NCBI GenBank assembly: GCA_019894665.1
Contig: JAGXOC010000001.1
Location: forward strand, 18,013-82,012
Length of the DNA: 64,000 nt
DNA from: Candidatus Thorarchaeota archaeon
GTDB lineage: Archaea; Asgardarchaeota; Thorarchaeia; Thorarchaeales; Thorarchaeaceae
Direction: 5' to 3'
The notes beneath the pieces were generated by a model, which ran no database searches, had not been told where the DNA came from, and was given only the letters and a program-made list of their open reading frames with translations. The position numbers were made by a program, and so were the translations under genes. Below, one piece after another: positions 6,089 to 46,274 of the stretch (positions are counted from its first letter, which is position 1; every line of letters starts with the position of its first letter).

Positions 6089-6157
6089 CTTCTAACCTGC
6101 ACCTTGTGCACTCTAGTTGCATAGCCATATAAGTGTGCATAGATTCCGAGCAAAACG

Positions 6158-22076: not shown

Positions 22077-23039
22077 ATGGTCACCGAGAAAAGCGATGCT
22101 GCTATTGAAGAAATCCAAGGAAAAGTAGACAAACTTTCTGTGGAACTTGCTAGTATACGTGAGGAGCTAACAGTGCTCACTTCCGTACCAGAAATAGACA
22201 AGAAAATTGACACTCTTAGTAAGAGTGTTGAGAAGGTTTGTGACGCTAAGGAAATTCAAGAAGTTGGAAAGAAGTTAGACGATCTGGCTAAATCGTTGAA
22301 GGGATTGGACCAAACAAAGAAACTGGACGATATCACAAAGTCAGTCATAGCGATTGACTCGACTGTGAAAGAAGTCAATGATTCCAAAGAGTCAGCTGTC
22401 ATCATAAAGAAGATTGATGATATTCTTGTGTCTCTGGCTGACAGTGAATCTGTACCAAAGAAATTGGATGACCTTCAGAATTACGTTGCAGGGCTTTCAG
22501 GTATAGAGGAGAAAGTTCAGGACCTCGCAGGCCAATTTGAAGAAACAAAAGAGATTGTGGGGATTATTGTTCGCCAACTGGATGATATTGAGCGGAAATA
22601 TAATCTGGCAATCGATAGGGTCACAGAGGCAGTTGACACACTCACCGACTTCATTAAATCCGGGGTTGCTACTTCATCTGAATCTAAGACACCTACGAAG
22701 AAACCCAATGAAACCATAGATGAAGAGAAACCCAAAATTAAACCTCCATCCACGGTTAATTTGCCATCAACCATTGACGCATTAATGGATAACCTGATGA
22801 CTCTGGTGATCCCGCAGACTGAAGCAAAAGAGATGGCTGAAGCTCTTGAGGAAGTGCGTGATGAGCTTACTACAATGATTAGGGGACACACACCGGTACT
22901 CTTCCAATTTGGTAAACGCGCTCGTGAACTGAAATCATATCCGCCAACTGCGACATTGAATGAAAATGATATTGCTAGTCTAAGTCGTGAAATCAAATCA
23001 TGGAAAAGCAAACTCAAAGAAGTGACTAGCAGTAGCTGA
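22077..23039 (+). CDS. coiled-coil protein with at least 5 tandem repeats of about 35 aa
   Basis: Repeats: KKIDTLSKSVEKV / KKLDDLAKSLKGL / KKLDDITKSVIAI / KKIDDILVSLADS / KKLDDLQNYVAGL. Confidence 0.55.
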   Translation: MVTEKSDAAIEEIQGKVDKLSVELASIREELTVLTSVPEIDKKIDTLSKSVEKVCDAKEIQEVGKKLDDLAKSLKGLDQTKKLDDITKSVIAIDSTVKEVNDSKESAVIIKKIDDILVSLADSESVPKKLDDLQNYVAGLSGIEEKVQDLAGQFEETKEIVGIIVRQLDDIERKYNLAIDRVTEAVDTLTDFIKSGVATSSESKTPTKKPNETIDEEKPKIKPPSTVNLPSTIDALMDNLMTLVIPQTEAKEMAEALEEVRDELTTMIRGHTPVLFQFGKRARELKSYPPTATLNENDIASLSREIKSWKSKLKEVTSSS

Positions 23040-24074: not shown

Positions 24075-27000
24075 ATGAGTGATGAAGCAGTTACGGAAGT
24101 AGTATCCGTATTGAAAAAGAATCTAGGCATCACGGATGTCGAGTCCAAGGTAATACTACCTGTTTACCTTGGTGGGAACATGACCGCTGGTGGAGTGTCT
24201 CTCATGTCAGGTGAGAAACTACCCACGGTCAAGAAAACCCTGAAGCGACTTGTTCAGAAGGGAATGGTCAAAGAGATAGATGGCATAGTTACAATATATC
24301 GTTCTGTGCCCCCGAACTTAGCACTATCAGATAATCTGTCGTCCTTCTTGGGTGACGTTCAAAATCTGACCGAGTTATCAGAGAAGACCTTCAGCTCAAA
24401 AGACGAAGATATTGACATTAATGTTGAGAAGGTTATCACTTCTCAGGATGAATCACTAGAAACTGTCAGAACCTCTCTCGCCAAATATGAGGATGAAATG
24501 CTGGATCTAGTAGGCAGTCGCATTGATCAAGTCAAAACTACCGCTACTGCAGTGATGGGTGCTCTCTCTGAAGACATTGAGGACATTATGAACAAGCTAG
24601 ACTCATCGCTAGATAACAGACTGGGAGCCAAGCTCACTGAATTACAAGGTGAGATTGACAAGAGCCAGGTAGGATTAGAAAAAGATGCGAAACGAATTTC
24701 CCGTGAGTTCGATAAATGGTTGAAAGTTGAAAGAAAGACCACGTTAGTCACAATTTCGGAATTTGAAACCAAAGCTCAATCACTCATAGGTGTCGCGCGG
24801 GACGCAGTCACCAAAGCGCTTGAAGCATCCTCCGCTGCGCTACAGAATATCACTCAAGAAATGACAAAGGCACTGAGCTCGATGACTTCCAATGCATCCG
24901 ATAAAGGAGTCGAGATTCTCAATTCAGTGTCAGAAGACCTCACTACTCTTCTTGCTCATTTGGAAGCTGAACTAGCCCATACTTACTTAGCTAGTCAAGA
25001 ATCTCTACGAGAAGTAATGGCTCAAGCACGAACTATACCCACCGAGTTCGGAGATTTCACAAAGAACAAGATAAACGCAGCAGTTGATATTGTTGAAGGT
25101 GTGAGTAGAGATGTTGATGACTGGAAAGAAGAAGTATCTAATTTTATGGACGTGGCATCCCAATCCGTGACTTCACAACTTGAACAGGTAGCATCTACAG
25201 ATGCGAACTACATAGAGGTGCTTAAAAATACTCTCACATCACACACAGAGAAATTGAACGGAATGATTAGTGAAGAATATCATCAAGTACAAGGTCTTGC
25301 AACAACCCTTGGAACTGATTGTGAAACTACACTTGCGGATACTCGTGTTCTGGTGCTAGAACTCCTAGAGAAAGAAAATGCAACAGAGCAAGCAGGGTGT
25401 GATGAAGCAGCTAAGACACTCCACTCAGAACTTGGTAATTGGGTACAAGGCACTGTACAAAACATCGAGAAGAATATGAAAACAACATCTGATGATATTT
25501 CCACTATTCTTGATACAGAATCTAGCGAGTTAAACTCCCTTGCTGCAGCGATGAATAGTAGATTGAAATCCGCATTCAATTCGATCATCAAATCTACAAC
25601 CACAAAGAATGAAACATTGATCACCTCAGTCAAGAAAACAACGCATGACTTTGAGGCAAGTGTTGGAACACAACTGGTGAAACTGATTGGAAGTTTTGCT
25701 AATACCACAGAGAAACAAGTTCTTGATTCAAGGAAACTCTATGAACGTCTGAGAGGTCGGCTTGACAAACGAATGACTGAGAGAGTCACTACGATAAGTT
25801 CTCAGGCCGATAGAATTGAAACTGAAATTGAAGCAATAATCACGCAACAAGTAAATCGAATTGACCAACACACTTTGGGCATTCGTGATGAGTTTCATAC
25901 ACGCCTTGAAGACATAACCCGTCAATTCATTACCCTGACCCAAGGTATCGAAGCGACTTTCAATGGTCTCCTTTCTAGTCAGACTGTTGAGGCTCGTGAC
26001 TTAATTGCATCAACTCATACAGAGTTTAAGACCGCTATGAAATCTGAAATGGTTGGTCTAAAGGAAGACTCTGTGAAATTGCAGCAGGAGTACTCTACAG
26101 AGCTTGGACTCAAAATCGATGAAGTCACTTCATCAATTGCTGGCGTGAAACACGCACTTGAGGAGATATCTGTTCAAAAGCGATTTGAAATCTCAGAAAG
26201 TATGGCTAAGGCTCTTACCACTCTGGAAACTTCAATTCGGAGTACCGAAGATAATTTGCGTCAGATGGAAACTGGCATCATCAATCAATTCACAGAAAAC
26301 CTTGATCAGGTCAGTCAGGAATTCCATGTTACTGTTGATGGTACACGTGATACTATCGCAGAGCGTTTAGATAATGTTCGAGCGGTAACAACAGATGCCA
26401 TAGAGAAAAGTAGTACAGCTGCGCAAAGAGCGGCTGATGCATTTGTTTCAGAACAAAAGGACCACAAGCAGCGACACTTGGCTGATACTAGCAAGAAGAT
26501 AAACCGCCTTGCTACAAAACTAGTGAAAGCATCTAAAGTAAAAATCGAGGAATTCCGTGCTGAACTTTCCGAATGTGAAACTGGTGGAGTGAAAGGTAGG
26601 AATTCAACAAAAGAGGAGATTATTCGAGCCGTTGAGGAACGGAGAGCGGAAGTAACGCAAGCATTCGATGCTGCTTCAGTTTGGGTTGACTCAACAGTTT
26701 CCAACCTGGGAACATCACTAGAAACCTTTGGATCCAAACTTGGTAACGACCTTACATTGATGCAAAGAAATCTCCAGAAAGCAGCTGAGGAAGCTTCTGC
26801 AGCTGTAATTGAACGTGGAGATGCAGATATTGACAAACTAGCAGAGATTACAACGACGCTCTTCGAAGACGCGGAATCCACTGTCACTGCTCGAATTGAT
26901 GACTTTGGAGGCAGTTGCGCTAATGCTTTAGTCAAGGGTAACGATGCATTCACCTCAATGCCTAATACTATGACAGAAAAAATTGAAGAAGTTGACAATG

Positions 27001-27968
27001 TAATCATCAAAGAAACAAATCAAAACTACAGCAAGGTGGCTGACAAGCTATCATCTTCATTTACGGAATTCCAGCGATCTGCTGAATCAGCTTCTGAAGA
27101 GTTTCGAAATCTGCTTGAAAAATCTTCAATTCAGACAACTGAGAAACGGAACGAGGCAATCACAGCCATACAAGAGAGTGCAAATCTGACCAACCAACAT
27201 GCAGCACGAAAATTGGAAACAATAGGCTTGGAGTTAAAAACACAGCTCAGTACTCAATCCTCAACTTTGATTGAGAAAACTCAATCTGATCTGGCTGCCA
27301 AGAATCTAGTCCTAACTGAAGCTGTCACTGATGCAAGCAATCAATCGAGTGAAGGAGTAACTCTGCTCCGACAAACACGAAGCGATGCGCTCTCTGCGTT
27401 CAGTGATCAGGTGGATAAATCATTCCGACGATGGTCAAATACCCAGAAAATGGAGATAGCCTCCTTGAGTGAAAATGTACAGGAAACCATAGCTGGAGTC
27501 ACCGAATTGACTTCAAAAGCTGTTGGTAATCTCAATGCAATCCATGAAGCAAGTGAAAGAATGCTTGATGTTTCGACTAGCAGAACCTGGTATCTTAGTG
27601 GGACTCAGGAGGCCTGTGCTCATATCGGTGACATGGTCCGTCGAGCCGAAGAATCGGTCGTTGTGGCAGTTCATGATGTGTCATGTCTAGATTTGAAGAA
27701 CCTTGCGAGGATAAAGACTCCTAAAAGGAGAGTTCTCATCGTACCTGAAACAGAAGATCCAGAAACAGTTCTCGAAATTATGGCTGGCTGGCGTGTATGG
27801 CAGACAAAAACTCCAATGCTTCTTTCGGTTATTGATGATCGTGAGATTCTTATCGGAGGTGCAAGAGATTCGGACTCTCCAATAGCGGTAGTTTCCGATG
27901 ATGCTTCATATCTCAAGCTTTACCATGATGTTTTGGGTCCGCAGTTAATTCAAAACAAAGTATCTTGA
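24075..27968 (+). CDS. giant (1297 aa) coiled-coil protein: N-terminal wHTH-like domain and a C-terminal globular domain
   Basis: The N-terminal 75 aa resemble a TrmB/MarR-type wHTH (VILPVYLGGNMTAGGVSLMSGEKLPTVKKTLKRLVQKGMVKEIDG). More than 1000 aa follow with a Q/E/K/L/T-rich helical pattern. No Walker A, so not SMC/Rad50, and no MCP signalling core. Last ~150 aa non-repetitive. Confidence 0.6.
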   Translation: MSDEAVTEVVSVLKKNLGITDVESKVILPVYLGGNMTAGGVSLMSGEKLPTVKKTLKRLVQKGMVKEIDGIVTIYRSVPPNLALSDNLSSFLGDVQNLTELSEKTFSSKDEDIDINVEKVITSQDESLETVRTSLAKYEDEMLDLVGSRIDQVKTTATAVMGALSEDIEDIMNKLDSSLDNRLGAKLTELQGEIDKSQVGLEKDAKRISREFDKWLKVERKTTLVTISEFETKAQSLIGVARDAVTKALEASSAALQNITQEMTKALSSMTSNASDKGVEILNSVSEDLTTLLAHLEAELAHTYLASQESLREVMAQARTIPTEFGDFTKNKINAAVDIVEGVSRDVDDWKEEVSNFMDVASQSVTSQLEQVASTDANYIEVLKNTLTSHTEKLNGMISEEYHQVQGLATTLGTDCETTLADTRVLVLELLEKENATEQAGCDEAAKTLHSELGNWVQGTVQNIEKNMKTTSDDISTILDTESSELNSLAAAMNSRLKSAFNSIIKSTTTKNETLITSVKKTTHDFEASVGTQLVKLIGSFANTTEKQVLDSRKLYERLRGRLDKRMTERVTTISSQADRIETEIEAIITQQVNRIDQHTLGIRDEFHTRLEDITRQFITLTQGIEATFNGLLSSQTVEARDLIASTHTEFKTAMKSEMVGLKEDSVKLQQEYSTELGLKIDEVTSSIAGVKHALEEISVQKRFEISESMAKALTTLETSIRSTEDNLRQMETGIINQFTENLDQVSQEFHVTVDGTRDTIAERLDNVRAVTTDAIEKSSTAAQRAADAFVSEQKDHKQRHLADTSKKINRLATKLVKASKVKIEEFRAELSECETGGVKGRNSTKEEIIRAVEERRAEVTQAFDAASVWVDSTVSNLGTSLETFGSKLGNDLTLMQRNLQKAAEEASAAVIERGDADIDKLAEITTTLFEDAESTVTARIDDFGGSCANALVKGNDAFTSMPNTMTEKIEEVDNVIIKETNQNYSKVADKLSSSFTEFQRSAESASEEFRNLLEKSSIQTTEKRNEAITAIQESANLTNQHAARKLETIGLELKTQLSTQSSTLIEKTQSDLAAKNLVLTEAVTDASNQSSEGVTLLRQTRSDALSAFSDQVDKSFRRWSNTQKMEIASLSENVQETIAGVTELTSKAVGNLNAIHEASERMLDVSTSRTWYLSGTQEACAHIGDMVRRAEESVVVAVHDVSCLDLKNLARIKTPKRRVLIVPETEDPETVLEIMAGWRVWQTKTPMLLSVIDDREILIGGARDSDSPIAVVSDDASYLKLYHDVLGPQLIQNKVS

Positions 27969-28448: not shown

Positions 28449-28808
28449 CTAAAATGATTCGTTTGCTCCAAAATCCCGCTCAACAGAGTTGCCACAGGAA
28501 GAACAAAACGCTGCATTCTCGGGAAGAGGATTTCTACAGAATTGGCATGACGCATCCACACGAAGATAGGCTGGTCCTGGTTCATCAGACTGGGCAAAAC
28601 GAGCATCATCTACCCCGTTCTTGTTTATCCACCAAAAAACCATCATCATAACGAAAAGAGTTGAGATCGTAATAACAGGAGCGAGGTTTCCCGTGAAGAA
28701 GAAGGGGAAAATGAAGAAAGTAACGCTCTCTCCAAGATTCAAAAGAGCAATACCCAGACCGAGAATGATGAATCCAATAGTAATTAGGTACATGTTTCTA
28801 TTCTTCAT
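28449..28808 (-). CDS. small membrane protein with a C-terminal zinc-ribbon
   Basis: Two hydrophobic helices (YLITIGFIILGLGIALL; ISTLFVMMMVFWWI). CQFCRNPLPENAAFCSSCGN. Confidence 0.4.
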   Translation of the reverse strand: MKNRNMYLITIGFIILGLGIALLNLGESVTFFIFPFFFTGNLAPVITISTLFVMMMVFWWINKNGVDDARFAQSDEPGPAYLRVDASCQFCRNPLPENAAFCSSCGNSVERDFGANESF

Positions 28809-29014
28809 GTAAAACTCACCATCAAGTCTTTGGATATTTCTGGGTGTGAATCTCCAATAGTCTTCTCGGGGTTCCGGTCAGTGAGAGCCTATTAAATTAT
28901 GGCTCCAATCTTCTAGATACCGCATAGAAAAGGCACGCAAGACATATCAACAACAGGTGAGATATTAACAAATGCTGAGCCACTACTGTAATTATCTATT
29001 TTGATGACTACAAT

Positions 29015-29584
29015 ATGGTGCGGGGGTTTGAAAGGATGATGCCAACTGACAAGAAGAAGACCAGTAAGAAGAGTGGAAAATCAAAGTATCTCTTCAAGAT
29101 CACGGTAGTAGGTCCTGACGATTCGCTCCTAGAGGATGTGCTTTCTACATTTGACCCAGTGGTAAAAGTAGATGGAATACGAATAGTATCCGCGGACCAT
29201 TCCACAGATGACTCAGATGTTCGAGCAGTCTTTATGTCTCCGAAACATGCAGTACTTGACATTCTCCTTTCTCTAACGTTCAAAAGTGCTAGTGCAGTGA
29301 TTATTGTTTTGAGAGGCTCTGACCCCGAGTTGGAAACTATATACAGAAATGAGATTCGTGAAAATCTGGGTACAAAAATCCCCACACGCGTAGTAACGGT
29401 CGAGTCTGCGCTTGATAAGTTCAAACGCACTGAGATACATCACATCTTTGATGAACTGATGGAAGAGATTCTTGCTCAGAGAGAGAAGGAACATAAAGCC
29501 AAAGAGAAGAAGAAGAAGGAAAAGGGCGAGAAGCAGAAAGAGAAGACCAAGAAGACAACGACTAAGAAAAAGAAGAAGAATTGA
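29015..29584 (+). CDS. hypothetical protein with a degenerate GTPase-like N-terminus and a poly-lysine C-terminal tail
   Basis: KYLFKITVVGPDDS resembles a G1 strand but lacks the GxxxxGK[ST] P-loop. C-terminal KEKKKKEKGEKQKEKTKKTTTKKKKKN. Confidence 0.45.
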   Translation: MVRGFERMMPTDKKKTSKKSGKSKYLFKITVVGPDDSLLEDVLSTFDPVVKVDGIRIVSADHSTDDSDVRAVFMSPKHAVLDILLSLTFKSASAVIIVLRGSDPELETIYRNEIRENLGTKIPTRVVTVESALDKFKRTEIHHIFDELMEEILAQREKEHKAKEKKKKEKGEKQKEKTKKTTTKKKKKN

Positions 29585-29628
29585 TACGTAACACGAACCT
29601 TTTTTTTCGATTGTAGATTCTTCAGAGC

Positions 29629-30642
29629 TTGGTGTCAGTAGTGGATTCAGATAAGAAAAGATCAGATGAATACTGGATGGGTGTCCGTGATGCACTACGG
29701 ATGGTCGATAGTTTTACCAAATGGGCAAGAAGAAATGAGAGTCGTGCTAAGAATCTTGATGATTTTATTCACGATGGATTAGTTGCAGCGGCGAAACGCT
29801 GTGAGTCTTGTCTGAAAGATGACTTGGGCCTCACCTTCGTGGAAGACGAAGAGTCAGTTGATGGATCCACAGGAGATGAACAGGTACCATCTGGTTATGA
29901 GATTGGTTCTTCTTCTAAAGATTATTCAGAGCCCGAAAAATCATCAGAACCCACTTTTGGAGGAACTCCCGAAGACATGGCTACTGAAACTTCGGAAGTG
30001 CCAATTGAATCTGAAAGTGATAGCATTAGCATTGACAATGTAAGTCGTCTTGAGGAGGAAGAGATGGATGACCTGTCAATAGATGGACCTCCACGCGAGT
30101 TCACATCAGATTTTGAGCTTGTTGAGCCTACCGATCTTTTTGTCGACATGTCTGAAGCTACAGCTGAGGATGAAGTTACACACGAACCAGAAGCAGAGGA
30201 AGTAGAACCTTCAGATGCCGAGAACAAACCTTCGTTCACTTGGGCTGATTACGAAAAAGCCGTGACTCCGGATACTGAGGGTCCCGAGATTGTTGAAGAA
30301 GATGAAGCTGACGAGATTCCACCTCCTATTGAACTGGAATCTGTAGACACACCAGTACCCTTTGATGAACCGGAGCCAATATCCGAAATGGTGGAGATGC
30401 CTGAGCCACCCCCAATTCCTGCCGACGAGTCAGAGCTAGCCTCAGAACCGATGAAAGTATCTGAGCCGCCCTCAATTCCGACAGATGAGTATGAGAGCGA
30501 ACCAATTGAAGAAGAAACCGTTGAAACGACAGAAGCGCCCGACCCTATAACAGAACCACCCCCACCACCCCCACCTCCAGATAGAGATGAGGATGAAGAT
30601 GAGCGACGACGTCGAGCTCGCAGACTCTTCTTCGGGGACTAA
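29629..30642 (+). CDS. acidic, proline-rich, probably disordered protein with a small N-terminal helical domain
   Basis: About 60-aa N-terminal domain, then an E/D/P/S-rich sequence with repeats (EPPPIPADESELASEP / EPPSIPTDEYESEP), a PPPPPPPP stretch and an Arg-rich C-terminus. Confidence 0.5.
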   Translation: MVSVVDSDKKRSDEYWMGVRDALRMVDSFTKWARRNESRAKNLDDFIHDGLVAAAKRCESCLKDDLGLTFVEDEESVDGSTGDEQVPSGYEIGSSSKDYSEPEKSSEPTFGGTPEDMATETSEVPIESESDSISIDNVSRLEEEEMDDLSIDGPPREFTSDFELVEPTDLFVDMSEATAEDEVTHEPEAEEVEPSDAENKPSFTWADYEKAVTPDTEGPEIVEEDEADEIPPPIELESVDTPVPFDEPEPISEMVEMPEPPPIPADESELASEPMKVSEPPSIPTDEYESEPIEEETVETTEAPDPITEPPPPPPPPDRDEDEDERRRRARRLFFGD

Positions 30643-31694
30643 TTCCCCTCTCCAATCATGTCTTTATAGAGCTTGGAAGCTTGGGTAGCAGTAGCTACAC
30701 CTTTCACAACAACATTTCCAGCAGGCATTATTGTCACACGAATCTCGTGGTCCACATTTACTACGAGGAATCGCTTCCTCCGCTTGACTGAGTAGTCAGA
30801 GTCTAGTTTGGTCGCCAATGTGTCAAGATCAATCTTTAGTAATTTTCCAGGTGATACATTGAAACTCTGAGAACACAACTGAGTCACTGTAAGCTCAGTC
30901 AGCTTACTGGCTGGCACTTTGTGTGGTGATGAACATACATCACAGTCTGCAGCTTTTCCAATGTCAAAGAAATCAAAACTCAATGAACTTGTATCGATGG
31001 TCATCAACCGGTTTGCTAAGTCAGACTCTCTCCCCAAAGCTAGTTTTAGTGCCTCGTTCACTTCAATCGATGCTGCAAGAGAGAGTAGCATTGGTGACAC
31101 TCCCACTCGTGCGCATGTATTTTCAGGATTATCTTGAGCATCTCCCATCACACATTGTAGACAACCGGTTTTTCCTGGGATGAATGTTGTAAGGTTTGCA
31201 TAATACTCAACAGCTCCCGCAAACACGTAAGGTATTTTGAGTGAGAGGCTTGCTTGGTTAACTGCTCTGCGGGCTTTGAATGAGTCTAATCCATCAACAA
31301 TGATGTCTACTCCCTTTAGTACATCAACTGCATTTTCATCATCAACAGAGACGCATATTGGATCAAACTGTACTTCCGGATTCATCAGCTCAAGATTATC
31401 TGCAGCTGCTTCTGCTTTAGGTTTGCCAATATCTTCAGTGTTGAATACTGTCTGTCTCTGAATGTTTGAGAGCTCAACAATATCTCGGTCGATGATTCTT
31501 ATTCTGCCAAAACCGATTGCAGCAAGAAGCCGGAGCGCAGGACTTCCTAATCCCCCAGCTCCCAACATGGCTACTGATGTATTCATGATAGTTTCCATAT
31601 CGTTTTCTGAAAAGTCACGAAGCGCAAGCATTCGTGAATACCTTTCTTGTTGTTCGTCTGTGAGCTTCATATCTGCCATTATGAACACAGGCAC
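30639..31694 (-). CDS. ThiF/MoeB/E1-like activating enzyme with a C-terminal extension of about 95 aa
   Basis: Nucleotide-binding LGAGGLGSPALRLLAAIGFGRIRIIDRD. RQ motif. Zn-binding CLQC ... CDVC. Unassigned extension after the second CxxC. Confidence 0.7.
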   Translation of the reverse strand: MPVFIMADMKLTDEQQERYSRMLALRDFSENDMETIMNTSVAMLGAGGLGSPALRLLAAIGFGRIRIIDRDIVELSNIQRQTVFNTEDIGKPKAEAAADNLELMNPEVQFDPICVSVDDENAVDVLKGVDIIVDGLDSFKARRAVNQASLSLKIPYVFAGAVEYYANLTTFIPGKTGCLQCVMGDAQDNPENTCARVGVSPMLLSLAASIEVNEALKLALGRESDLANRLMTIDTSSLSFDFFDIGKAADCDVCSSPHKVPASKLTELTVTQLCSQSFNVSPGKLLKIDLDTLATKLDSDYSVKRRKRFLVVNVDHEIRVTIMPAGNVVVKGVATATQASKLYKDMIGEGN

Positions 31695-31729
31695 TCACTT
31701 AAAACCTTGGACATCAGTTATGGTCGCTC

Positions 31730-32554
31730 ATGGAGTCCAAGTCTGAGGTTGCAATAGGACTTAGAAGGAGTCCGGGAGAAGCGCTGAGAACAGCTCTCTC
31801 AAAGTTGAATGAACCAATAATTCCTCCAGCGAATACCAAACGTGTTGTAATCAAACCATCAATCTATGATCCAAACTTGCCGGGAAACACTGATGCGAAT
31901 ATGGTTCGAGCAATCATTCAAATGTTCAGTTCTGTGGGTCCAATCAGTATAGTGGAAAGCGATAACCCCTTGAGAACAACTAGGGATGCATTCACACGAA
32001 GCGGCTATACTGTTCTTGAAAATGAGACAGTGGAGCTTGTGAACCTCTCAGATGCAGACATGACCTCAGTCGCATTCTCTGGCCATTACTTCCAAAACCG
32101 AAAAATGCCACGAATTCTGCACGATGATCCATTCCTGATCAACGTTGCCACGCTGAAGGCAGAACCCGATATCTGCACCGTAGGTGCCGGCATAAAGAAT
32201 CTTTTTGGACTTCTGCCTGAGCTGGATAAGAGTGTCTATCATGAGTCCATTAATAGTGTGTTAATGGACCTCCTAGAAGCATATAGACCAAATCTAACGG
32301 TGATTGATCTCACTGATGTCGTCATTGGAAACAGAGAAGAGGGACATACAAAACATGTTGGGGGCGTGGTGGTTGGAGTTGACCCCGTTGCCGTGGATTC
32401 TTTCTGCTCAAGTCTTCTTGGAATTGATCCTATGAAGATAGATCATCTGCGAACCGCCCACACTCTTGGCATGGGAGAAGCTTTACCCGACCGCATCACA
32501 GTGCGTGGCACGAAGCATCAGATAGAGGAGCTAGGTAGGCTTTTCCAACAATAG
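31730..32554 (+). CDS. DUF362-like protein
   Basis: RVVIKPSIYDPNLPGNTDANMVRAII resembles the DUF362 N-terminus. Assigned from memory. Confidence 0.4.
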   Translation: MESKSEVAIGLRRSPGEALRTALSKLNEPIIPPANTKRVVIKPSIYDPNLPGNTDANMVRAIIQMFSSVGPISIVESDNPLRTTRDAFTRSGYTVLENETVELVNLSDADMTSVAFSGHYFQNRKMPRILHDDPFLINVATLKAEPDICTVGAGIKNLFGLLPELDKSVYHESINSVLMDLLEAYRPNLTVIDLTDVVIGNREEGHTKHVGGVVVGVDPVAVDSFCSSLLGIDPMKIDHLRTAHTLGMGEALPDRITVRGTKHQIEELGRLFQQ

Positions 32555-34441: not shown

Positions 34442-35452
34442 CTACAACTTGGTCAGGATCTGCAAGATGTTCCCAAAATTATGTTCAATAGTACGACTCT
34501 TCTCCGCATATCCCGCAAGGGTATCCAATCTGTCATCCCTTTCAGTGAGCTGGCAGAATTTGTCTGATCGGATCTCTGAATGGATCGCTTCATTTAGTTC
34601 AATTATCTCATCGGATGACTTCAGAATATATTGAAGCATCTTGATGAGCATGTTGAACTCAATGATGTCCCGAAGCTGGAGCGCCTGGCTATAAAATTGG
34701 AATTCCAATCTTGCTAATCTTTCCCTCATTGAAACTAGATTTTGAATCCATTCCTTGGCATCTTCCTCTCTTAATTCTTGACTAAGCCTGTTCCAGAAGT
34801 TTTGTTGATCAAGAAGCTGAACCAAATAGTTTCGAAGGAATTGGAAATGATCTACACCTTTTTCAATATCATCTTCAGTACCGATAGGCTCCATCATCTC
34901 ATCTGTCTGACTGTGCTTTACGGCAATCATGAGTGAGAACTTGTCCACGTATCTCTTCACTTCATCAGTTTTTTCTTTCTCTGTCAGTGCACCAGCAAAA
35001 GTATCGCCTAATGTTAAGATGAATTTGTAGAGACATTCAGAACATATCTCTGCACTACTTGAGATTTCCTTAGTTGACAGAAACTGCATAGCATCCTCTA
35101 GGTCCTTTCCTGGCACATCTTGTCTATGTATCCTCAAAACCCATCCTTGTGAGATACAATAGACTTTGTTGTCCAGGTAGTTGATGTAGATTGACGCATA
35201 GCAAACATTACCATCGGACGCCCTCTCTTCCTCCATACTGTCCTTGTCGTAGTGGAATGAGAAAATAGAAGGATCTATCTCAATGGCATCAATCTCTAGG
35301 ACGCTGTCATCGTTTACACACAGTTTTTCGTCTCCAAAAACTTTGTAGCAAGGACAACCTCTGACTAGCTTGATGCTTGATTCTTTCTCCTGCTTGCTAC
35401 TGCTTGTGCCAAACACGTTCCTTTTCTCCAACTCAAGATTGCGTTTCCTCAA
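34442..35452 (-). CDS. uncharacterised Cys-motif protein (CPCY family), paralog A
   Basis: LVRGCPCYKVFGDEKLCVNDD ... YCISQ ... CSECLYKF, then a helical C-terminal half. Paralog of the 35504-36511 gene. Confidence 0.55.
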   Translation of the reverse strand: MRKRNLELEKRNVFGTSSSKQEKESSIKLVRGCPCYKVFGDEKLCVNDDSVLEIDAIEIDPSIFSFHYDKDSMEEERASDGNVCYASIYINYLDNKVYCISQGWVLRIHRQDVPGKDLEDAMQFLSTKEISSSAEICSECLYKFILTLGDTFAGALTEKEKTDEVKRYVDKFSLMIAVKHSQTDEMMEPIGTEDDIEKGVDHFQFLRNYLVQLLDQQNFWNRLSQELREEDAKEWIQNLVSMRERLARLEFQFYSQALQLRDIIEFNMLIKMLQYILKSSDEIIELNEAIHSEIRSDKFCQLTERDDRLDTLAGYAEKSRTIEHNFGNILQILTKL

Positions 35453-35503: not shown

Positions 35504-36511
35504 TTATGCAGTATGTGTGTCTATATTGTGAAGTGCTGAAACAAGATTGCTGAACTTGTACTCTGTAGTCTTTCTCGCTTCGGAATGCTGAGAGAGCATC
35601 TCACGGATGTTGGAAGGCAAAGCATCACGTTCGACGAGACTGTTTGTTTTCTCACGAATCGAATTGTTGACAGTGATGACCTTCTCAGAGACCCCAACCA
35701 TGAACCGCAGAACACTGAGTGGATCTGTTTCATCAGACGGATCATCAAGAGATAATACTTGAAACAGGAATACTGACTCTAGACGTGCAAGGGTTCTATA
35801 GGCATCAATCAACTCAAGCAGGTCTTGCTCAACTCCAGCTTGCTTCAAGTTTAGCATCATCGATGCCCAGTGGGAGCGGCTTCTGTTGATTTCCCTAAGG
35901 TAGTTCCATAAGTGGGTATTGAAATCTGAGGGTTTTTCACTCGCTTCATACCCACTGAGTTGTATGGCCATATTGGTTGCCAACTCCCGGACATATTTTG
36001 CGATGACCTCTTGTCTCTCATCATCTGTCAGAAAGCCTTCCGAACTCTCTCCTAGGGTCCTCAGATATCTGTAAAGACAATCAGAGCAAAGGACACCATC
36101 TCTACTCTTTTCGGAGGACGTCACGAATTGCAGTGCGCTATCAATCTCAGACACTTTGACATCTTTTTCATTGATACTAATTCGTTGGTTCTGACTCACA
36201 CAATAGCAGAATCCTCCCTTTCTATCGAGAAACATCAGGAGGTAGCACATGCTCTTGTTATCGCTCATATATTCCTCTAGAAGGTGTTGCGAGTCGAGTT
36301 GATTGAAGAAACTTGGGTCAACTGAGATCGCATTGATTGGAAAGACACCATCATTATTCAAACAGACTTTCTCATCACCAAATTCCCGATAGCATGGGCA
36401 TCCTCTCACAAGATGACTAGGACCATCTGGAGAGTCTGATAATAAGCTTGAATCTATGTTCACTCGGGACGCCTCAGGTCGGATTTTGGTGACACTCCTA
36501 ATTGTGTTCAA
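35504..36511 (-). CDS. uncharacterised Cys-motif protein (CPCY family), paralog B
   Basis: LVRGCPCYREFGDEKVCLNND ... YCVSQ ... CSDCLYRY. Same length and architecture as paralog A. Confidence 0.55.
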   Translation of the reverse strand: MNTIRSVTKIRPEASRVNIDSSLLSDSPDGPSHLVRGCPCYREFGDEKVCLNNDGVFPINAISVDPSFFNQLDSQHLLEEYMSDNKSMCYLLMFLDRKGGFCYCVSQNQRISINEKDVKVSEIDSALQFVTSSEKSRDGVLCSDCLYRYLRTLGESSEGFLTDDERQEVIAKYVRELATNMAIQLSGYEASEKPSDFNTHLWNYLREINRSRSHWASMMLNLKQAGVEQDLLELIDAYRTLARLESVFLFQVLSLDDPSDETDPLSVLRFMVGVSEKVITVNNSIREKTNSLVERDALPSNIREMLSQHSEARKTTEYKFSNLVSALHNIDTHTA

Positions 36512-37135: not shown

Positions 37136-37897
37136 ATGGCTACAAATGCTGAGAGTAAAGCGGCTGGTAAATCCGAAGATGGAGTGAAAACTTCACAAGA
37201 GCTTGAATCCCTAAAGTGGATTCGTGAAAGACGTTCCATCAGAGAATTCACTGGCGAAAAAATATCCGATGAGCACATCGAGTTGATTTTGGAAGCGGCG
37301 CGACATGCACCGAGTCCAGAGAACATGTTGATGATGCGTTTCGTTGTAATACGTGATGACCAGGATAGTAAGGTTTTCCTAGCAGATATCGCCCAGGAAA
37401 TGGCTCAAACTGCTTTCGGAGGAGCTCCATTTGAACTCACAAGTGGAAGAAACTGGTTTATCAGTGATCCTTACAGAGCGGCAGTCTATGCGAGACTGAG
37501 GGATGGAGAGTTATTCAGATATCCGGAAAAGAGCGACACTGTGATTATTGTTTGTGCAAGTGAAGCTTGGCATGATGCTGGATATCTCTACCCCAATTCA
37601 CTATTTGGATCGGTAGTCTGTGGAATGGCAATCCAAAATATGTGGCTGACCGCCACAGAACTTGGATATGGATGCGGGTATGAGGCACTAGTCTGTTCTG
37701 ATCCCCGTCATGCTCAACTTCTACGTGACCGATTCGGCATCCCACCAATTTGGGAGCCTATAACTGCCTTTTGTATTGGCCAGCGCGTTTCACCACGTGC
37801 TTTAGGTCCCAGCAGAGCCCCTCTTGAGGGTCTGATGTACGAAGAGCGATGGGGCAAACCATACAAGAGACTCGCGTTCAGGAAGGAGGACAAGTAA
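37136..37897 (+). CDS. nitroreductase-family flavoprotein, copy 1
   Basis: RERRSIREFTGEKISDEHIELILEAARHAPSPENMLMMRFVVIRDD matches the nitroreductase N-terminal region. Paralog of the 44358-45122 gene. Confidence 0.65.
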   Translation: MATNAESKAAGKSEDGVKTSQELESLKWIRERRSIREFTGEKISDEHIELILEAARHAPSPENMLMMRFVVIRDDQDSKVFLADIAQEMAQTAFGGAPFELTSGRNWFISDPYRAAVYARLRDGELFRYPEKSDTVIIVCASEAWHDAGYLYPNSLFGSVVCGMAIQNMWLTATELGYGCGYEALVCSDPRHAQLLRDRFGIPPIWEPITAFCIGQRVSPRALGPSRAPLEGLMYEERWGKPYKRLAFRKEDK

Positions 37898-37898
37898 T

Positions 37899-38426
37899 AT
37901 GGACGTCAATTTTGAAGGTAAAACTCTAGATAACATGAAGGAATTAGCTGAAGAGGCTGGTCTTACCCCTGAAGGCTTTATCGAGGTTGTCATGGAGCAA
38001 TTCGTTGACAACAAAGGTGGACGAGTCTACTCAGGCAGATGGTCCGGTGGAGTTGTTGACGGCGAAAAGGGCTTTCGCTATGTCCCGCAATGGCCTTTCC
38101 GACCCGGCTTCAAAGAAGCCGAGGGAGACAAGGTGAAGGGCTGGAAGTCTGGAGGCAAATCTTTCAGACCTCATCCTACTGGAGCTTGGCCTTTCTATCC
38201 GCGACTGAAAGAAGGCGACATCGAGCACGAATACTGGAACACTAAGAAGATGATTCATCAATCCTTCATCAACGACAGAAAGGGACGCGTTGTAGTACTA
38301 ATGGATGGCGACAGATATGATAACTTTCTCGACAAGGTGAAAGCGAGGAAAGGTAATTTCTGGGCGAACTCCGTTGACGATTCTATGCAAGAGGCTGTGG
38401 ATGACTGGATGGCTAAGGAGGAATGA
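37899..38426 (+). CDS. hypothetical Gly/Trp/Lys-rich protein
   Basis: 175-aa ORF translationally coupled between the nitroreductase and the SCP2 gene (GRWSGGVVDGEKGFRYVPQWPFRPGFKEAEGDKVKGWKSGGKSFRPHPTGAWPFYPRLKEG). No known domain. Confidence 0.5.
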   Translation: MDVNFEGKTLDNMKELAEEAGLTPEGFIEVVMEQFVDNKGGRVYSGRWSGGVVDGEKGFRYVPQWPFRPGFKEAEGDKVKGWKSGGKSFRPHPTGAWPFYPRLKEGDIEHEYWNTKKMIHQSFINDRKGRVVVLMDGDRYDNFLDKVKARKGNFWANSVDDSMQEAVDDWMAKEE

Positions 38427-38430
38427 AACA

Positions 38431-38790
38431 ATGTCACAACTACAAGAATTTTTCAAATTCCTGATGACCCAATGCAACACCAAGGATGACCTTAAGAAAC
38501 AGCTCGCCGCTTGGGTTGGTCCCTATCACGGTAAAATCCTTCAGGTTCATACTGAGGAAGGTGACCAATACATGGTGGTGACAAAGGACAAGATCGAGTT
38601 ATTCGAGGGAAGCTATCCTAGTCCTGATGTCACCTACAAATCGAGTGCTGCAATATTGCTTGGTATCTTCACTGGTGAAGTTCCATTCAAAGACACAATG
38701 AAGGACGGAAGTCTTCAGGTCATTGGCAACGCGAACGAAAGCGACCCTCTTGCTAATCTAATTCTTCAGGTAATGATGGGTGCGATGTAG
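38431..38790 (+). CDS. SCP2 sterol-carrier-like domain protein
   Basis: AAILLGIFTGEVPFKDTMKDGSLQVIGNANESDPLANLI matches the SCP2 C-terminal pattern. Start moved to the ATG at 38431 behind a GGAGG RBS. Confidence 0.5.
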   Translation: MSQLQEFFKFLMTQCNTKDDLKKQLAAWVGPYHGKILQVHTEEGDQYMVVTKDKIELFEGSYPSPDVTYKSSAAILLGIFTGEVPFKDTMKDGSLQVIGNANESDPLANLILQVMMGAM

Positions 38791-38801
38791 GAGGAATTGC
38801 T

Positions 38802-39923
38802 ATGGTTAACAAGATTGCCGTCATTGGCTCTGGACTTATGGGTTCAGGAATTGCATACGTGTCCGCGTGGAATGGTATCACTGTCACCATGGTTGATATC
38901 AAACAAGAGTTCATCGACAAGGGTATGGAACGACTCCGAACTGATGTTATGACTGGTATCGACAAAGGGAAGATTACCATGACTCAGGCTGAAGGTCTTA
39001 TGAGTAGGCTCAGCGCAACAATTGATATTGAAGAGGCTGTCAAAGACGCAGACCTTGTCATTGAAGCCATCTTCGAGAATATGGAGGTCAAGAAAGAAGT
39101 TTTTGCCAAGATAGATGCCGCGGCGCCTGCACACGCAATACTGGCTACAAACACATCGTCGCTAAGTATTGATGAGCTAGCAACAGCCACGAAGAGGCCG
39201 GACAAATTCATAGGTATGCACTACTTCTCACCGGTCCCAGCTATGAAGCTATTAGAGCTCGTAATTGGGGACAAGACCAGTGCAGAGACCATTGCTACTG
39301 CTGAAGCTGTGGGCAAGACCCAGGGAAAAACAACAGTCATAGCAAAGAACAGTCCTGGATTCATAGTAAATCGCCTTCTCATGCCAGTTATGCGCGAGGC
39401 AATACTAATGCTGGAGCGTGGAGAGGCAACGAAGGAGGAGATTGACAATGCTATGCTGCAAGTCGGAAAAGCTCCCGCCGGTCCCTTCACATTGGGTGAC
39501 TTTGTGGGTCTCGATATTGCTTACAATGCTATGTCAACCCTATACAGAGAGATTGGTGACTGTTTCAAACCACCTGATACTCTAAAGAACCTCGTTGAAT
39601 CTGGTGCTATCGGTATGAAATCCAAAAAGGGCTTCTACTCGTATGGTGCGGATATTGTAGAACCTGAGGCACCAAAGGGTGCAGATCCGAACTGGATTGT
39701 AGAGCGATTGAATATGCCAGCTGTTCGTGAAGCTATGATTTTGGTGGATGACGATATCGCCAACAAGGAAGACATTGATATGGCCATGAAGCTAGGAGCA
39801 AGCTGGCCCATGGGTCCTTTTGAGATGGCGGATAAATTTGGACTTGACAAGATCAAAGAGTTTCTGACGAAGCTCGAGAGCGAATCAGGTGCTTGTTACT
39901 CGGTTCCGAAATATCTGGAATAA
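38802..39923 (+). CDS. 3-hydroxyacyl-CoA dehydrogenase, copy 1
   Basis: Rossmann fold (IAVIGSGLMGSGIA). NTSSLSI. Duplicated C-terminal 3HCDH_C region. Confidence 0.8.
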   Translation: MVNKIAVIGSGLMGSGIAYVSAWNGITVTMVDIKQEFIDKGMERLRTDVMTGIDKGKITMTQAEGLMSRLSATIDIEEAVKDADLVIEAIFENMEVKKEVFAKIDAAAPAHAILATNTSSLSIDELATATKRPDKFIGMHYFSPVPAMKLLELVIGDKTSAETIATAEAVGKTQGKTTVIAKNSPGFIVNRLLMPVMREAILMLERGEATKEEIDNAMLQVGKAPAGPFTLGDFVGLDIAYNAMSTLYREIGDCFKPPDTLKNLVESGAIGMKSKKGFYSYGADIVEPEAPKGADPNWIVERLNMPAVREAMILVDDDIANKEDIDMAMKLGASWPMGPFEMADKFGLDKIKEFLTKLESESGACYSVPKYLE

Positions 39924-40059
39924 ATCAGATCAAGAAATGGGTGGGGAGTTTCCCTACCCTATCTCTTCTTTTTTTCGATAACAATGCTCATTCGCGAGAA
40001 TGAACGATGTTTATAAGTCAGTCACTCTCTCCGAGAAGATATAGACTCCAAATAGGTGG

Positions 40060-40878
40060 TTGAATATGCCAGAGTATGAAACAATACTTTATTCAAAAGA
40101 GGGCTCGTTCCTTTCCCCTGAAAAGAACGTGGCCGTAATTAAGATGAATCGCATTGATGCAATGAATGCTTTTAATGCTAAAATCCTCGAAGAGCTTGTG
40201 GCAGCATTACAAGAGGCTGAGAATGATCCAGAGGTTAGATCAATTGTAATCGCGTCAACACATGGCAAGGTGTTTGGTGTTGGTGCAGACCTAAAGGATG
40301 CGCAGGCTCTACTAGGCAAACCCGATGAGGTCAGACCTCTCTTGGAACAGGGGATAGAAGCAATCGATACTGTTGCAAAACTTAGCAAACCGGTAATAGC
40401 AGCCATAAATGGACTCTGTCTTGGCGGTGGAACCGAACTTGCTCTCGCCTGTGATATCCGAATCTGCGATACTGAAGCTAAAATTGGAACCCCTGAGGTG
40501 AGTTTAGGTTTAATTCCATCATGGGGTGGATGCGTTAGACTTCCTAGAATTGTAGGACTTGGGAAAGCAATGGAGATAATTCTAACTGGTGGTCAGGTCA
40601 CAGCTCAAGAGGCTCTTGATATGGGTCTTGTAAGTAAAGTTGTAACCAAGGATGAGTTGCTAAGCCAAGCTATGTGGTATGGTGCAAAACTGGGCGGCAA
40701 TGCACCTGTCGCTTTGAAGCTAGCAAAACAAGCCACGCATATGGCTTTCGAAGAAGACTACAAGGACAACTTTGAATTTCTAATTGATGCAGGTGTTGAA
40801 TGTTTCAAGACTAAGGATCTTGGTGAGGGAATCGCCTCAGTCTTTGAGAAGCGACGTGGCAAGTTCACTGGAGAATAG
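40060..40878 (+). CDS. enoyl-CoA hydratase/crotonase family protein, divergent copy
   Basis: Oxyanion-hole motifs (FGVGADLKD; INGLCLGGGTELALACDIRI). Confidence 0.8.
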   Translation: MNMPEYETILYSKEGSFLSPEKNVAVIKMNRIDAMNAFNAKILEELVAALQEAENDPEVRSIVIASTHGKVFGVGADLKDAQALLGKPDEVRPLLEQGIEAIDTVAKLSKPVIAAINGLCLGGGTELALACDIRICDTEAKIGTPEVSLGLIPSWGGCVRLPRIVGLGKAMEIILTGGQVTAQEALDMGLVSKVVTKDELLSQAMWYGAKLGGNAPVALKLAKQATHMAFEEDYKDNFEFLIDAGVECFKTKDLGEGIASVFEKRRGKFTGE

Positions 40879-44357: not shown

Positions 44358-45122
44358 ATGACAACGAAAGCAAAAGGAAAATCGGATAGTAGTAGTGAGA
44401 AGCTAGAAGACACAAAGATTGCTTCAGGGCTCGAAGCAATGAAGCATGTTAGGTCTCGACGCTCAATCCGAGAGTTCACTGGCGGGAAGATTCCTGATGA
44501 TCACATCGAGCTGATATTAGAAGCAGCACGACATGCTCCAAGTCCTGAGAACATGTTAATGATCAGGCTAATTGTGATACGAGATGACCAGGCAACAAAG
44601 GAATTCTTAGCAGACATAGCACATGAAAATGCACGGACAGTATTTGGTAACTCTCCTTTTGAGCTCACAAGCGGAAGAAATTGGTATATCGGAGATGAAT
44701 TTCGAGCCGCTGTGTTCTCTCGACTTCGGGAGGGGACGCTTTTCAGGTATCCCGAGAAGAGCGATACCGTCATAGTTGTGTGTGCAAGTCATGCGTGGCA
44801 CGATGCAACCAAATTGTACCCCAATGAACTCTTCGGATCTGTTGTTGCAGGTATGGCTATACAAAACATGTGGATGGTCGCAACTGCAATGGGGTATGGT
44901 TGCGGCTACGAGGCTTTGGTTTGCTCAGACTCACGACACACTCAGTTAATTCGTGATAGAATTGGAATCCCACCGATTTGGGCACCTTTGACAGCATTTT
45001 GTATTGGTGTTCCTGTTTCTACAAGACATCTGGGACCCAGTCGACCACCACTAGAAGGACTACTGTATGATGAACGATGGGGTAAACCATACAGAAGGAT
45101 TGCATTCAGAAAAAAGGAGTGA
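44358..45122 (+). CDS. nitroreductase-family flavoprotein, copy 2
   Basis: SRRSIREFTGGKIPDDHIELILEAARHAPSPENMLMIRLIVIRDD. About 65% identical to copy 1 over the full length. Confidence 0.65.
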   Translation: MTTKAKGKSDSSSEKLEDTKIASGLEAMKHVRSRRSIREFTGGKIPDDHIELILEAARHAPSPENMLMIRLIVIRDDQATKEFLADIAHENARTVFGNSPFELTSGRNWYIGDEFRAAVFSRLREGTLFRYPEKSDTVIVVCASHAWHDATKLYPNELFGSVVAGMAIQNMWMVATAMGYGCGYEALVCSDSRHTQLIRDRIGIPPIWAPLTAFCIGVPVSTRHLGPSRPPLEGLLYDERWGKPYRRIAFRKKE

Positions 45123-46255
45123 AGGAAATGAAGGTCAAAAAGATAGCAGTTATTGGTGCCGGTCTCATGGGAGCAGGAATCACATATGTGTCTAGAGCAT
45201 CTGGATATGAAGTGATAATGACTGATTTGGATGACGACGCGCTACAACGTGGTCTGTCAAGGTTCAATGGTTATGTGGAATCAGGAGTCAAACGAGGGAA
45301 GTTATCACCCAAAGATGGCGAGAAGTTAATCAGTCAGCTAACTACTACAACAGATCTGAGCGAAGCAGTCAGTGATGTGGATCTGGTCATAGAGGCTGTA
45401 TTCGAAAACATGGACGTCAAGAAGAAACTATTCAAAGAAATGGACAGTGCTGCCAAACCTCACACAATCCTCGCTTCCAACACATCCTCCCTTAGCATAA
45501 CCGAGCTTGGAAAGGTGACAAACCGACCTGACAAGGTAGTTGGGATGCACTACTTTTCTCCTGTTCCTGCAATGAAGCTTCTTGAGGTCATCATAGGAAG
45601 AGAGACGAATGATGATACTGTTCAGACTGCCTTAGAAGTTGGTGAGAAACAGAGGAAAATTACTGTGAAGGCAATAGATAGTCCAGGATTCATTGTCAAC
45701 AGACTCCGTAGCCAGATTTCGAGAGCAGTATTACAGATCTATGAACAAGGCTTGGCAAGTGCTGAAGAGATTGACACAGCCATGAAAGAGAAGTTCGGTA
45801 CACCAATGGGATCATTGGAACTGACTGACTTTGTTGGCCTGGATGTATCATTTGGTACCGGGAGTACTCTCGAGAGAGAATTGGGAGATTGTTACAAAGT
45901 TCCTGAAATACTCAAGAAGTATGTAGAGGAAGGAAGAATTGGAAGGAAGGCTGGCAAGGGTTTCTATGCTTATGAAGATGGCCAGAAACGGTCGCTTGAA
46001 GAACCAAAGGGTGCAGATCCAGATGTGCTGGTCAACAGAATCATCATGCCATATCTGAGAGAGGCTATGATTGAACTCGAGACCGGGATTGCATCAAAGG
46101 AGGATATTGACAAGGCTATGAAACTGGGTTCTAACTATAAGGAAGGACCCTTTGAAACCATTGAACGGCTTGGTCTTGATACGGTTCGAGAGGAGTTGAA
46201 GAAACTTCAGGAAGAATTTGGAGATTGCTATAACCTTCCCAAAATGCTTCAGTGA
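45119..46255 (+). CDS. 3-hydroxyacyl-CoA dehydrogenase, copy 2
   Basis: IAVIGAGLMGAGIT; NTSSLSI. Same two C-terminal-domain architecture as copy 1. Overlaps the upstream stop codon by 4 nt. Confidence 0.8.
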   Translation: MKEMKVKKIAVIGAGLMGAGITYVSRASGYEVIMTDLDDDALQRGLSRFNGYVESGVKRGKLSPKDGEKLISQLTTTTDLSEAVSDVDLVIEAVFENMDVKKKLFKEMDSAAKPHTILASNTSSLSITELGKVTNRPDKVVGMHYFSPVPAMKLLEVIIGRETNDDTVQTALEVGEKQRKITVKAIDSPGFIVNRLRSQISRAVLQIYEQGLASAEEIDTAMKEKFGTPMGSLELTDFVGLDVSFGTGSTLERELGDCYKVPEILKKYVEEGRIGRKAGKGFYAYEDGQKRSLEEPKGADPDVLVNRIIMPYLREAMIELETGIASKEDIDKAMKLGSNYKEGPFETIERLGLDTVREELKKLQEEFGDCYNLPKMLQ

Positions 46256-46274
46256 CAGTGGGTGTGAGAAAACT

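Follow-up and report, generated by a model that had tools for sequence, protein, structure and literature searches.

A probable Rab-derived pseudoGTPase family of Thorarchaeota and its acidic, motif-rich neighbour beside an E1-like enzyme gene

The DNA considered here is a 64,000-nt stretch, referred to as the window, of a metagenome-assembled genome (MAG) of Candidatus Thorarchaeota, an Asgard archaeon. Between positions 29,015 and 31,694 it carries three adjacent genes, termed A, B and C in this work. A preliminary description, made from the sequence alone, had taken them as a pseudo-GTPase-like protein with a poly-lysine tail, an acidic polyproline protein and an extended E1-like enzyme. 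All three open reading frames (ORFs) are borne out at the coordinates below, and the genes are real and conserved; the product of gene A is 100% identical to the NCBI protein KGD60_00240.

29015-29584, + strand: gene A as its longest ORF, 189 aa
29036..29584, + strand: gene A from Met8, the start used by NCBI and most orthologues, 182 aa
29629-30642, + strand: gene B, 337 aa; translation may in fact begin with the GTG at 29632 or 29641
30639-31694, - strand: gene C, 351 aa; likely start MKLTDEQ near 31670

Orthologues of gene C are mostly 343 aa long and start with MKLTD. As had been described, B and C are convergent and overlap by 4 nt, their stop codons sharing 30639-30642. Comparisons between species draw on a scan with one genome per species, which gave 55 loci with gene A, all Thorarchaeota-type (loci are numbered throughout with the prefix L); the peptide pattern used, taken from the narrower A alignment, confines the scan to such sequences. 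Within the window, Pfam searches covered the 56 main ORFs, each 119 aa or longer, and Rfam and tRNA scans gave no RNA genes. From these comparisons we infer an archaeal family of Rab-derived pseudoGTPases whose dedicated neighbour abounds in short linear motifs, a pair that would be new.

By its sequence profile, gene A is homologous to the Rab/Ras GTPases. When the family profile, with distant members included, was compared with all PDB sequences, the top 60 matches were Rabs only, led by Ypt32/Rab11 (E 5.3e-8) and Rab23 (E 3.6e-7) and followed by Rab1, Rab8 and Rab35. In the hidden Markov model (HMM) alignment, the profile segment YLFKItvvGPdDkLleevLs pairs gap-free with the P-loop segment of Ypt32, and ykGAsGaiiV pairs with the Rab block YRGAVGALIV. 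These Rab-only matches strengthen the earlier pseudo-GTPase-like assignment, which had rested on a Ras-like G1 strand (KITVVGPDDS) without a P-loop; that strand is present and GxxxxGK[ST] is indeed absent. The two segments of A that concern its motif loss and its charged end are as follows.

29099..29134, + strand: degenerate P-loop (G1) of A, VVGPDDSLLEDV, at the position of the Ypt32 P-loop, with GKS replaced by LLE in an ungapped HMM alignment
29489..29581, + strand: Lys-rich C-terminal tail of A, 17 Lys in 31 aa by composition count

In the G1 segment VVGPDDSLLE, the P-loop lysine is replaced by leucine and the serine by glutamate. GxxxxGK[ST] is lacking in all family members, and G-P-x-D-x-L is (near-)invariant across the family, distant members included. 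At G3 the protein reads FMSPKH where Rabs have WDTAGQE, so that DxxG is gone, and at G4 it reads PTRVVTVESALD where Rabs have the GNKSDL region, so that [NT]KxD is gone as well; the NKxD position in the family alignment is V/I-x-x-x. These losses are common to every member, including the remote Asgard ones, and gene A is therefore predicted to bind no nucleotide and to act as a nucleotide-free interaction module. Conservation within A is highest where the P-loop, the switches and G3 used to be (GPxDxL, VDGI, FMSPxH and YRNEIRENLG). More than 200 homologues were found, nearly all labelled Thorarchaeota, and core identity across Thorarchaeota is 60-90%; such identity in a protein that has lost its G motifs indicates that a surface without enzymatic function is under selection. 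When 1.84 billion representatives were searched for more remote relatives, only 19 matches came back, one of them from Helarchaeota.

The AlphaFold2 (AF2) model of gene A (predicted local distance difference test, pLDDT, 76) has the topology β1-α1-β2-β3-α2-β4-α3-β5-α4. It comprises β1-β5 and α1-α4 only, lacks β6, the G5 loop and α5, and so falls short of a complete G-domain fold with six strands, five helices and the G5 SAK loop. Gene A accordingly combines the core fold of a G domain with a detectable sequence relationship to the Ras superfamily, and shares with pseudoGTPases a GTPase fold with degenerate G motifs. Searches of Pfam, NCBIfam and PADLOC with the whole protein or its domains returned no significant match, even at E values up to 10. 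The protein is basic (isoelectric point, pI, 9.6) and ends, as previously noted, in a K-rich tail of ~30 aa, with 17 Lys among its last 31 residues. This tail is restricted to the subclade of the window, where the last 30 residues contain 9-22 Lys/Arg, compared with 2-8 elsewhere; polybasic ends are also found on two remote members, P0373 and P0375. Another Asgard lineage (L007) has a tandem pair of A-like pseudoGTPase paralogues, at 5291-5734 and 6001-6441, beside the genes for rpl15e and an RNase P subunit; a B-like gene is lacking in their vicinity.

Gene B is conserved, with 262 homologues, nearly all labelled Thorarchaeota, so that the objection foreseen in the preliminary description, a lack of conservation of the acidic ORF, does not arise. 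Its characterization as very acidic and Pro-rich holds (pI 4.05, 30% Asp+Glu, 12% Pro), as does that of a PPPPPPPP stretch and an Arg-rich end. The term 'repeat-containing' fits only weakly and is overstated, Tandem Repeats Finder having reported no real repeats beyond codon-level low complexity, namely the Pro-codon run of B and the Lys-codon run of A. Neither the whole protein nor its domains gave a significant match in Pfam, NCBIfam or PADLOC, even at E values up to 10; PDB sequences gave none either, and a profile of the N-terminal domain found nothing better than E 1.1 among them. Conserved elements of B were recognized in alignments of its orthologues.

29665..29838, + strand: conserved N-terminal domain of B, YWMGVRDALRMVDSF...AAAKRCESCL...LGL, a (near-)invariant alignment block
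30085..30129, + strand: short motif in the disordered region of B, GPPREFTSDFELVEP; divergent orthologues show ARDFEEDFEVAEP, ARDFQSEFEIEEP and PRDFSEEFELVEP
30232..30270, + strand: short motif in the disordered region of B, SFTWADYEKAVTP, with the pattern (S/G)FTWx(D/E)YE in divergent orthologues
30556..30579, + strand: polyproline tract P8 of B, aa 310-317, in the context EPPPPPPPPD
30601..30639, + strand: near-invariant C-terminal motif of B, ERRRRARRLFFGD, also written EERRRRARRLFFG; peptide RRRRARRLFFGD

The N-terminal block of ~55 residues (YW-GVRDALRMVDSF...AAAKRCESCL...LG) is probably helical. It is followed by an acidic linker whose composition is conserved and whose length is very variable, with B orthologues ranging from 141 to 653 aa, and in which the alignments reveal the conserved short motifs (R)(D/E)FxxDFxLVEP, (S/G)FTWx(D/E)YE and WSPYDEP. 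In nearly all long orthologues, a tract of five to nine prolines (P5-9) immediately precedes the acidic and Arg-rich end, its position being constant. The end itself conforms to EER[RK][RKQ]RARRLFFG[DATG] in nearly all B-carrying species-level loci (exceptions L056, L057, L059 and L060), with a near-invariant penultimate glycine, and no ORF other than B carries the motif in the 64 loci. In the L006/L061 lineage, B is only 141 aa long, keeps the N-terminal domain without CxxC and ends in RRRRLFFSA. Since this short form retains only the N-terminal domain and the C-terminal end, the minimal functional parts of B appear to be its two termini. Together, the conserved N-terminal domain, the acidic disordered linker and the linear motifs point to an adaptor-like protein.

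In 43 of the 46 species-level loci where the sequence leaves room for B, it follows A in the same orientation at a distance of 15-148 nt (usually 31-91 nt; one pair overlaps by 4 nt). In the L006/L061 lineage, A is inverted yet still adjoins B. The pairing also outlasts the local loss of neighbouring genes, namely ThiF, FeS_assembly_P (in this window) or DUF362 (in L006). The order of genes in the surrounding block is the TrmB-type gene of 1297 aa, GNAT, zinc-ribbon, FeS_assembly_P, A, B, ThiF (present or absent), DUF362, aminotransferase and CxxCxxCC. The spacer between A and B contains one further feature.

29590..29607, + strand: purine-rich element and T-run in the A-B spacer, AACACGAACC TTTTTTTT, conserved across spacers

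In all 44 of the 44 spacers inspected, this element is present as ACGAAGCTTTTTTT or ACAAAGCCTTTATT, ~25 nt 5' of the start region of B. Read against the archaeal BRE/TATA promoter consensus (BRE, transcription factor B recognition element), it looks like a promoter from which B would be transcribed into an mRNA with no leader or a short one, and the T-run could also serve as an oligo-T terminator for A. A scan for bacterial promoters and terminators gave background levels, its models being bacterial and not applicable to archaea.

Two local variations of the block were observed. The FeS_assembly_P gene (PF01883), which lies between the zinc-ribbon membrane gene and A at other loci (L001 5495-5842, L003 5463-5822, L004 5459-5806), is missing from this window, where ~200 nt (28808-29015) separate the zinc-ribbon membrane gene from A. 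In one Thorarchaeota MAG (L027, 6184-8740), a 728-aa reverse-strand ORF and a small helix-turn-helix-like ORF stand in place of B and the ORF call of A is truncated; an insertion, a rearrangement or an assembly chimera is possible.

Gene C encodes a ThiF/MoeB/E1-like enzyme, as had been proposed. PF00899 matches aa 19-252 over model positions 1-237 of 238 with 226.6 bits (cut-off 28.1), and the CxxC...CxxC zinc motifs lie at 178-181 and 251-254, aligned to the zinc cysteines of ThiF.

30939..31640, - strand: ThiF/MoeB adenylation domain of C, PF00899, 226.6 bits
30642..30902, - strand: C-terminal single TBP-like (helix-grip) domain of C, aa 265-351, AF2 pLDDT 86

Alignment with E. coli ThiF (1zfn; E 1.8e-38) matches GAGGLG, both CxxC pairs and the loop cysteine, which occurs in ENTCARVGV of C and in ERNCRTAGV of ThiF; the Gly-rich ATP loop and the four zinc cysteines (C178/C181 and C251/C254) are thus present. 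Against the NCBIfam equivalogs, C scores 195 bits for MoeB (cut-off 449), 187 for ThiF (275) and 173 for UbaA (450); as all are below the cut-offs, no specific substrate is assigned. Most likely, C activates a small sulfur-carrier or ubiquitin-like protein encoded elsewhere.

The C-terminal extension of C had been given as ~95 aa and unassigned. Some 94 residues do follow the ThiF domain, but they form a TBP-like domain that has already been described. The extension matches Pfam TBP below threshold (E 0.009) and, taken alone, matches the C-terminus of PRK12475 (positions 263-338) with E 3e-4; comparison of the AF2 model with known folds confirmed a single TBP-like fold, which rules out the beta-grasp and rhodanese folds that had been considered for it. 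A C-terminal TBP domain has been reported on MoeB homologues (Brindefalk et al. 2013, PMC3597702). Some Thorarchaeota lineages have orthologues of C that are only 252-255 aa long and lack this domain.

A joint protein-modification or scaffolding context for the three genes, which the preliminary description had suggested, is not supported. C is convergent to B, and of 41 species 10 lack it at the site between B and DUF362 while retaining A-B and the remaining synteny; in these ten ThiF-less loci the C-terminal motif of B is unchanged in nine and altered in L059. Among the 56 main window ORFs, Pfam gave no match for a ubiquitin-like protein (Ubl), ThiS, MoaD, E2 (UBC), JAMM (JAB/MPN), profilin or Cdc48, and the window contains no real GG-ended ORF. 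The absence of C beside B in 10/41 species and the lack of Ubl, E2 and JAMM matches among these ORFs leave a joint system unsupported, and C is probably a syntenic neighbour of A-B and not a partner. A cofactor-biosynthesis setting had been doubted in that description, and a molybdopterin or thiamine operon is ruled out, in the window and at related loci, by neighbours that encode DUF362, an aminotransferase and a CxxCxxCC protein. ThiF (-) and DUF362 (+) are divergent and 35 nt apart (31694-31730), implying a promoter region shared bidirectionally with the aminotransferase and CxxCxxCC genes. A role in defence was also rejected: PADLOC gives C only generic E1 similarity (at most 65 bits, adenylation domain only) and reports nothing for A, B or the neighbouring genes, the definitions of anti-phage E1-E2 systems (CBASS Cap2/Bil-type) being unmatched.

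Our results are best accommodated by a Thorarchaeota-specific A-B module, a pseudoGTPase with a disordered adaptor, beside an unrelated neighbour C, an interpretation that we hold to be somewhat more probable than its contrary. Gene A would derive from a Rab/Ras-type small GTPase that kept the G-domain core from β1 to α4 and lost the phosphate-binding Lys and Ser (GKS to LLE), DxxG, NKxD and the whole of β6/G5/α5. It would then be a permanently 'locked' interaction module without a switch, whose most conserved surface is formed by the former P-loop and switch regions. A is proposed to bind B, most likely through the N-terminal domain of B. The long acidic linker of B would present three or four conserved aromatic-acidic motifs, and such linear motifs may bring in further factors. 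Possible partners are a reader of polyproline II helices, e.g. a Thorarchaeota profilin, for the polyproline tract, and the membrane or an AAA+/Cdc48-type protein for the C-terminal peptide. In its most specific form, which we think highly improbable, A-B would be an Asgard-specific, nucleotide-independent 'Rab-effector-like' adaptor in which A holds the N-terminal domain of B, the C-terminus of B anchors on the membrane or on Cdc48, and the polyproline tract is the native profilin ligand.

However, several observations weigh against the A-B module. With regard to A, the Pfam Ras models give no match, and an hhalign comparison of the A profile with one H-Ras sequence gave none either (probability 1.2%), the comparison with all PDB sequences being the informative one. 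Confidence in the model of A is moderate (pLDDT 76, the five AF2 models spanning 54-76), and the absence of nucleotide binding is a prediction from motifs. With regard to the pair, the apparent promoter of B means that co-transcription with A is not assured. Gene order is collinear across Thorarchaeota over ~12 kb, starting with the TrmB-type 1297-aa gene and ending with the CxxCxxCC gene, and in a block that is syntenic as a whole the adjacency of A and B is weak evidence of a functional link; distant homologues of A in other Asgard lineages, at the loci inspected, have no B-like neighbour. Lastly, the convergent arrangement of B and C is kept in 31/41 species, with an overlap of 4 or 18 nt in most, and this could reflect a link with C.

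The collinearity of the ~12-kb neighbourhood in all Thorarchaeota loci, the BRE/TATA-like element of B and the A-like proteins elsewhere in Asgard archaea without a B neighbour would all fit an alternative in which A and B are functionally unrelated, their adjacency being synteny inherited within one archaeal class and A acting alone or with unlinked partners. Inherited synteny of this kind is harder to reconcile with a pairing that survives both the loss of ThiF, FeS_assembly_P (window) or DUF362 (L006) and the inversion of A relative to B in L006/L061, or with the almost complete confinement of both families to Thorarchaeota. We therefore regard it as rather unlikely, although it is the strongest of the alternatives, and retain the A-B module.

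A second alternative unites all three genes in one protein-modification or quality-control system, in which C would have B as its substrate, with adenylation of the invariant ...LFFG-x end as one possibility, or would act together with B and A, and in which B is a Cdc48/p97-type cofactor through a C-terminal helix resembling the VCP-binding motif (VBM). The convergent B/C genes in most of the 31/41 ThiF-retaining loci and in L006/L061, the near-invariant C-terminus of B with its penultimate Gly and the intact catalytic apparatus of C are consistent with such a system, and EERRRRARRLFF resembles the p97 VBM consensus EhRRRRLxhh (PMC5389986). However, the VBM match requires a three-residue insertion and has a motif-only basis, B lacks a GG end, and the 56 main window ORFs yielded no nearby Ubl, E2 or JAMM. 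Moreover, convergent genes are not co-transcribed, C is divergently paired with the DUF362, aminotransferase and CxxCxxCC genes, and its deletion in 10/41 species has left A-B and nine of ten C-termini of B unchanged. A single system is thus very unlikely, and an A-B module with C as a neighbour remains our preferred interpretation. Least probable is that A still binds a nucleotide through a non-canonical pocket, as an atypical GTPase or ATPase: the conservation of GPxDxL, VDGI, FMSPxH and YRNEIRENLG is what a ligand pocket would also lead one to expect, but the P-loop Lys and Ser/Thr, the Asp and Gly of DxxG and NKxD are replaced in every member, and β6-G5-α5, which closes the guanine pocket, is absent.

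Other genes of the window were also noted. At the upstream end of the block, 24075-27968 (+) encodes a protein of 1297 aa that joins a TrmB-type winged helix at its N-terminus to ~1100 residues of apolipoprotein-like helical repeats; all Thorarchaeota loci examined keep it at 1297-1303 aa, and PADLOC shows only a ZorA-tail-like coiled-coil similarity. Another coiled-coil protein, of 320 aa, is encoded at 22077-23039 (+) and has weak Pfam matches to ATG17-like (below the gathering score) and NPV_P10 (above it). Downstream of the block in all Thorarchaeota loci are tandem paralogues of ~335 aa without a Pfam match (34442-35452 and 35504-36511, both -), which have in common an N-terminal (I/V)(R/K)L/VVRGCPCxKxFGDEKLCVNDD motif and a C-terminal HNFGNILQIL motif. 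The regions 37136-40878 and 44358-47060 resemble each other in gene content, a nitroreductase, a 3-hydroxyacyl-CoA dehydrogenase and an enoyl-CoA hydratase being encoded in both, and a thiolase/ChsH2-type pair sits between them, which suggests a duplicated beta-oxidation-like cluster. The 313-aa protein encoded at 60103-61044 (-) has a sub-threshold Pfam match to Vps35 of the retromer (E 3.6e-5; 22.9 bits, cut-off 35) and may, on the basis of this match, be a eukaryote-like trafficking fragment.

Comparison with known systems places C among familiar enzymes. It shares the adenylation domain, the Gly-rich ATP loop, the four zinc cysteines and the loop cysteine with UbaA, the SAMP-activating E1 of Haloferax (NF047750), and with E. 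coli MoeB and ThiF, and differs from them in scoring below the equivalog cut-offs, in having no SAMP, MoaD or ThiS gene nearby and in carrying the additional TBP-like domain. The same two-domain architecture is found in the 'ThiF-MoeZ-MoeB group' with a C-terminal TBP (PMC3597702; NF009123/PRK12475), and PRK12475 aligns end to end (aa 16-348 of C with 2-338), although a score of 183 bits against a cut-off of 510 indicates that C belongs to a divergent archaeal branch. C is an ordinary enzyme, and the one point of interest left in it is what the TBP-like domain does on enzymes of the MoeB type.

At the level of motifs, we take the C-terminal peptide of B to resemble the amphipathic membrane anchors of the MinD type; computing its hydrophobic moment against that of the MinD anchor gave no distinguishing outcome. 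The succession of an acidic stretch, an Arg-rich stretch and L-F-F at this end is also similar, again as a motif and with an insertion of three residues, to the VBM of p97 ligands (EhRRRRLxhh, PMC5389986). A Thorarchaeota profilin binds the polyproline of VASP, with a Kd of 250-500 uM (PMC8410842). Weak as this binding is, it makes the P5-9 tract of B a candidate native ligand and thus a candidate for what Thorarchaeota profilins recognise. A disordered B built from short linear motifs would represent another eukaryote-like design, and if A-B does act as an adaptor with profilin as the native partner of its polyproline tract, a Rab-like scaffold would be tied to the regulation of actin in an organism closely related to eukaryotes.

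Asgard archaea have been studied for their many eukaryote-like small GTPases and cytoskeletal proteins. Relative to the Rab/Ras GTPases (Rab11/Ypt32, Rab23, Rab1, Rab8 and the Asgard small GTPases), A has the YLFK start of β1 and a YxGAxGxxxV block equivalent to RabF4, whereas its G1, G3 and G4 are destroyed, G5, β6 and α5 are missing, and Pfam Ras and Arf give no match. Polybasic C-terminal tails are known on several eukaryotic small GTPases, and some members of the A family have one; gene A carries no CAAX or other lipidation motif. PseudoGTPases of eukaryotes include CENP-M and the pG1/pG2 domains of p190RhoGAP. In the literature library that was searched, no link between Asgard archaea and pseudoGTPases was found, and, if our interpretation is correct, a conserved Rab-derived pseudoGTPase would show that these proteins, so far a eukaryotic theme, arose in archaea too. 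Like its eukaryotic counterparts, A combines a GTPase fold with degenerate G motifs and is predicted to be a constitutive protein-interaction module; unlike them, it would be of independent origin and is a stand-alone archaeal protein of 150-180 aa.

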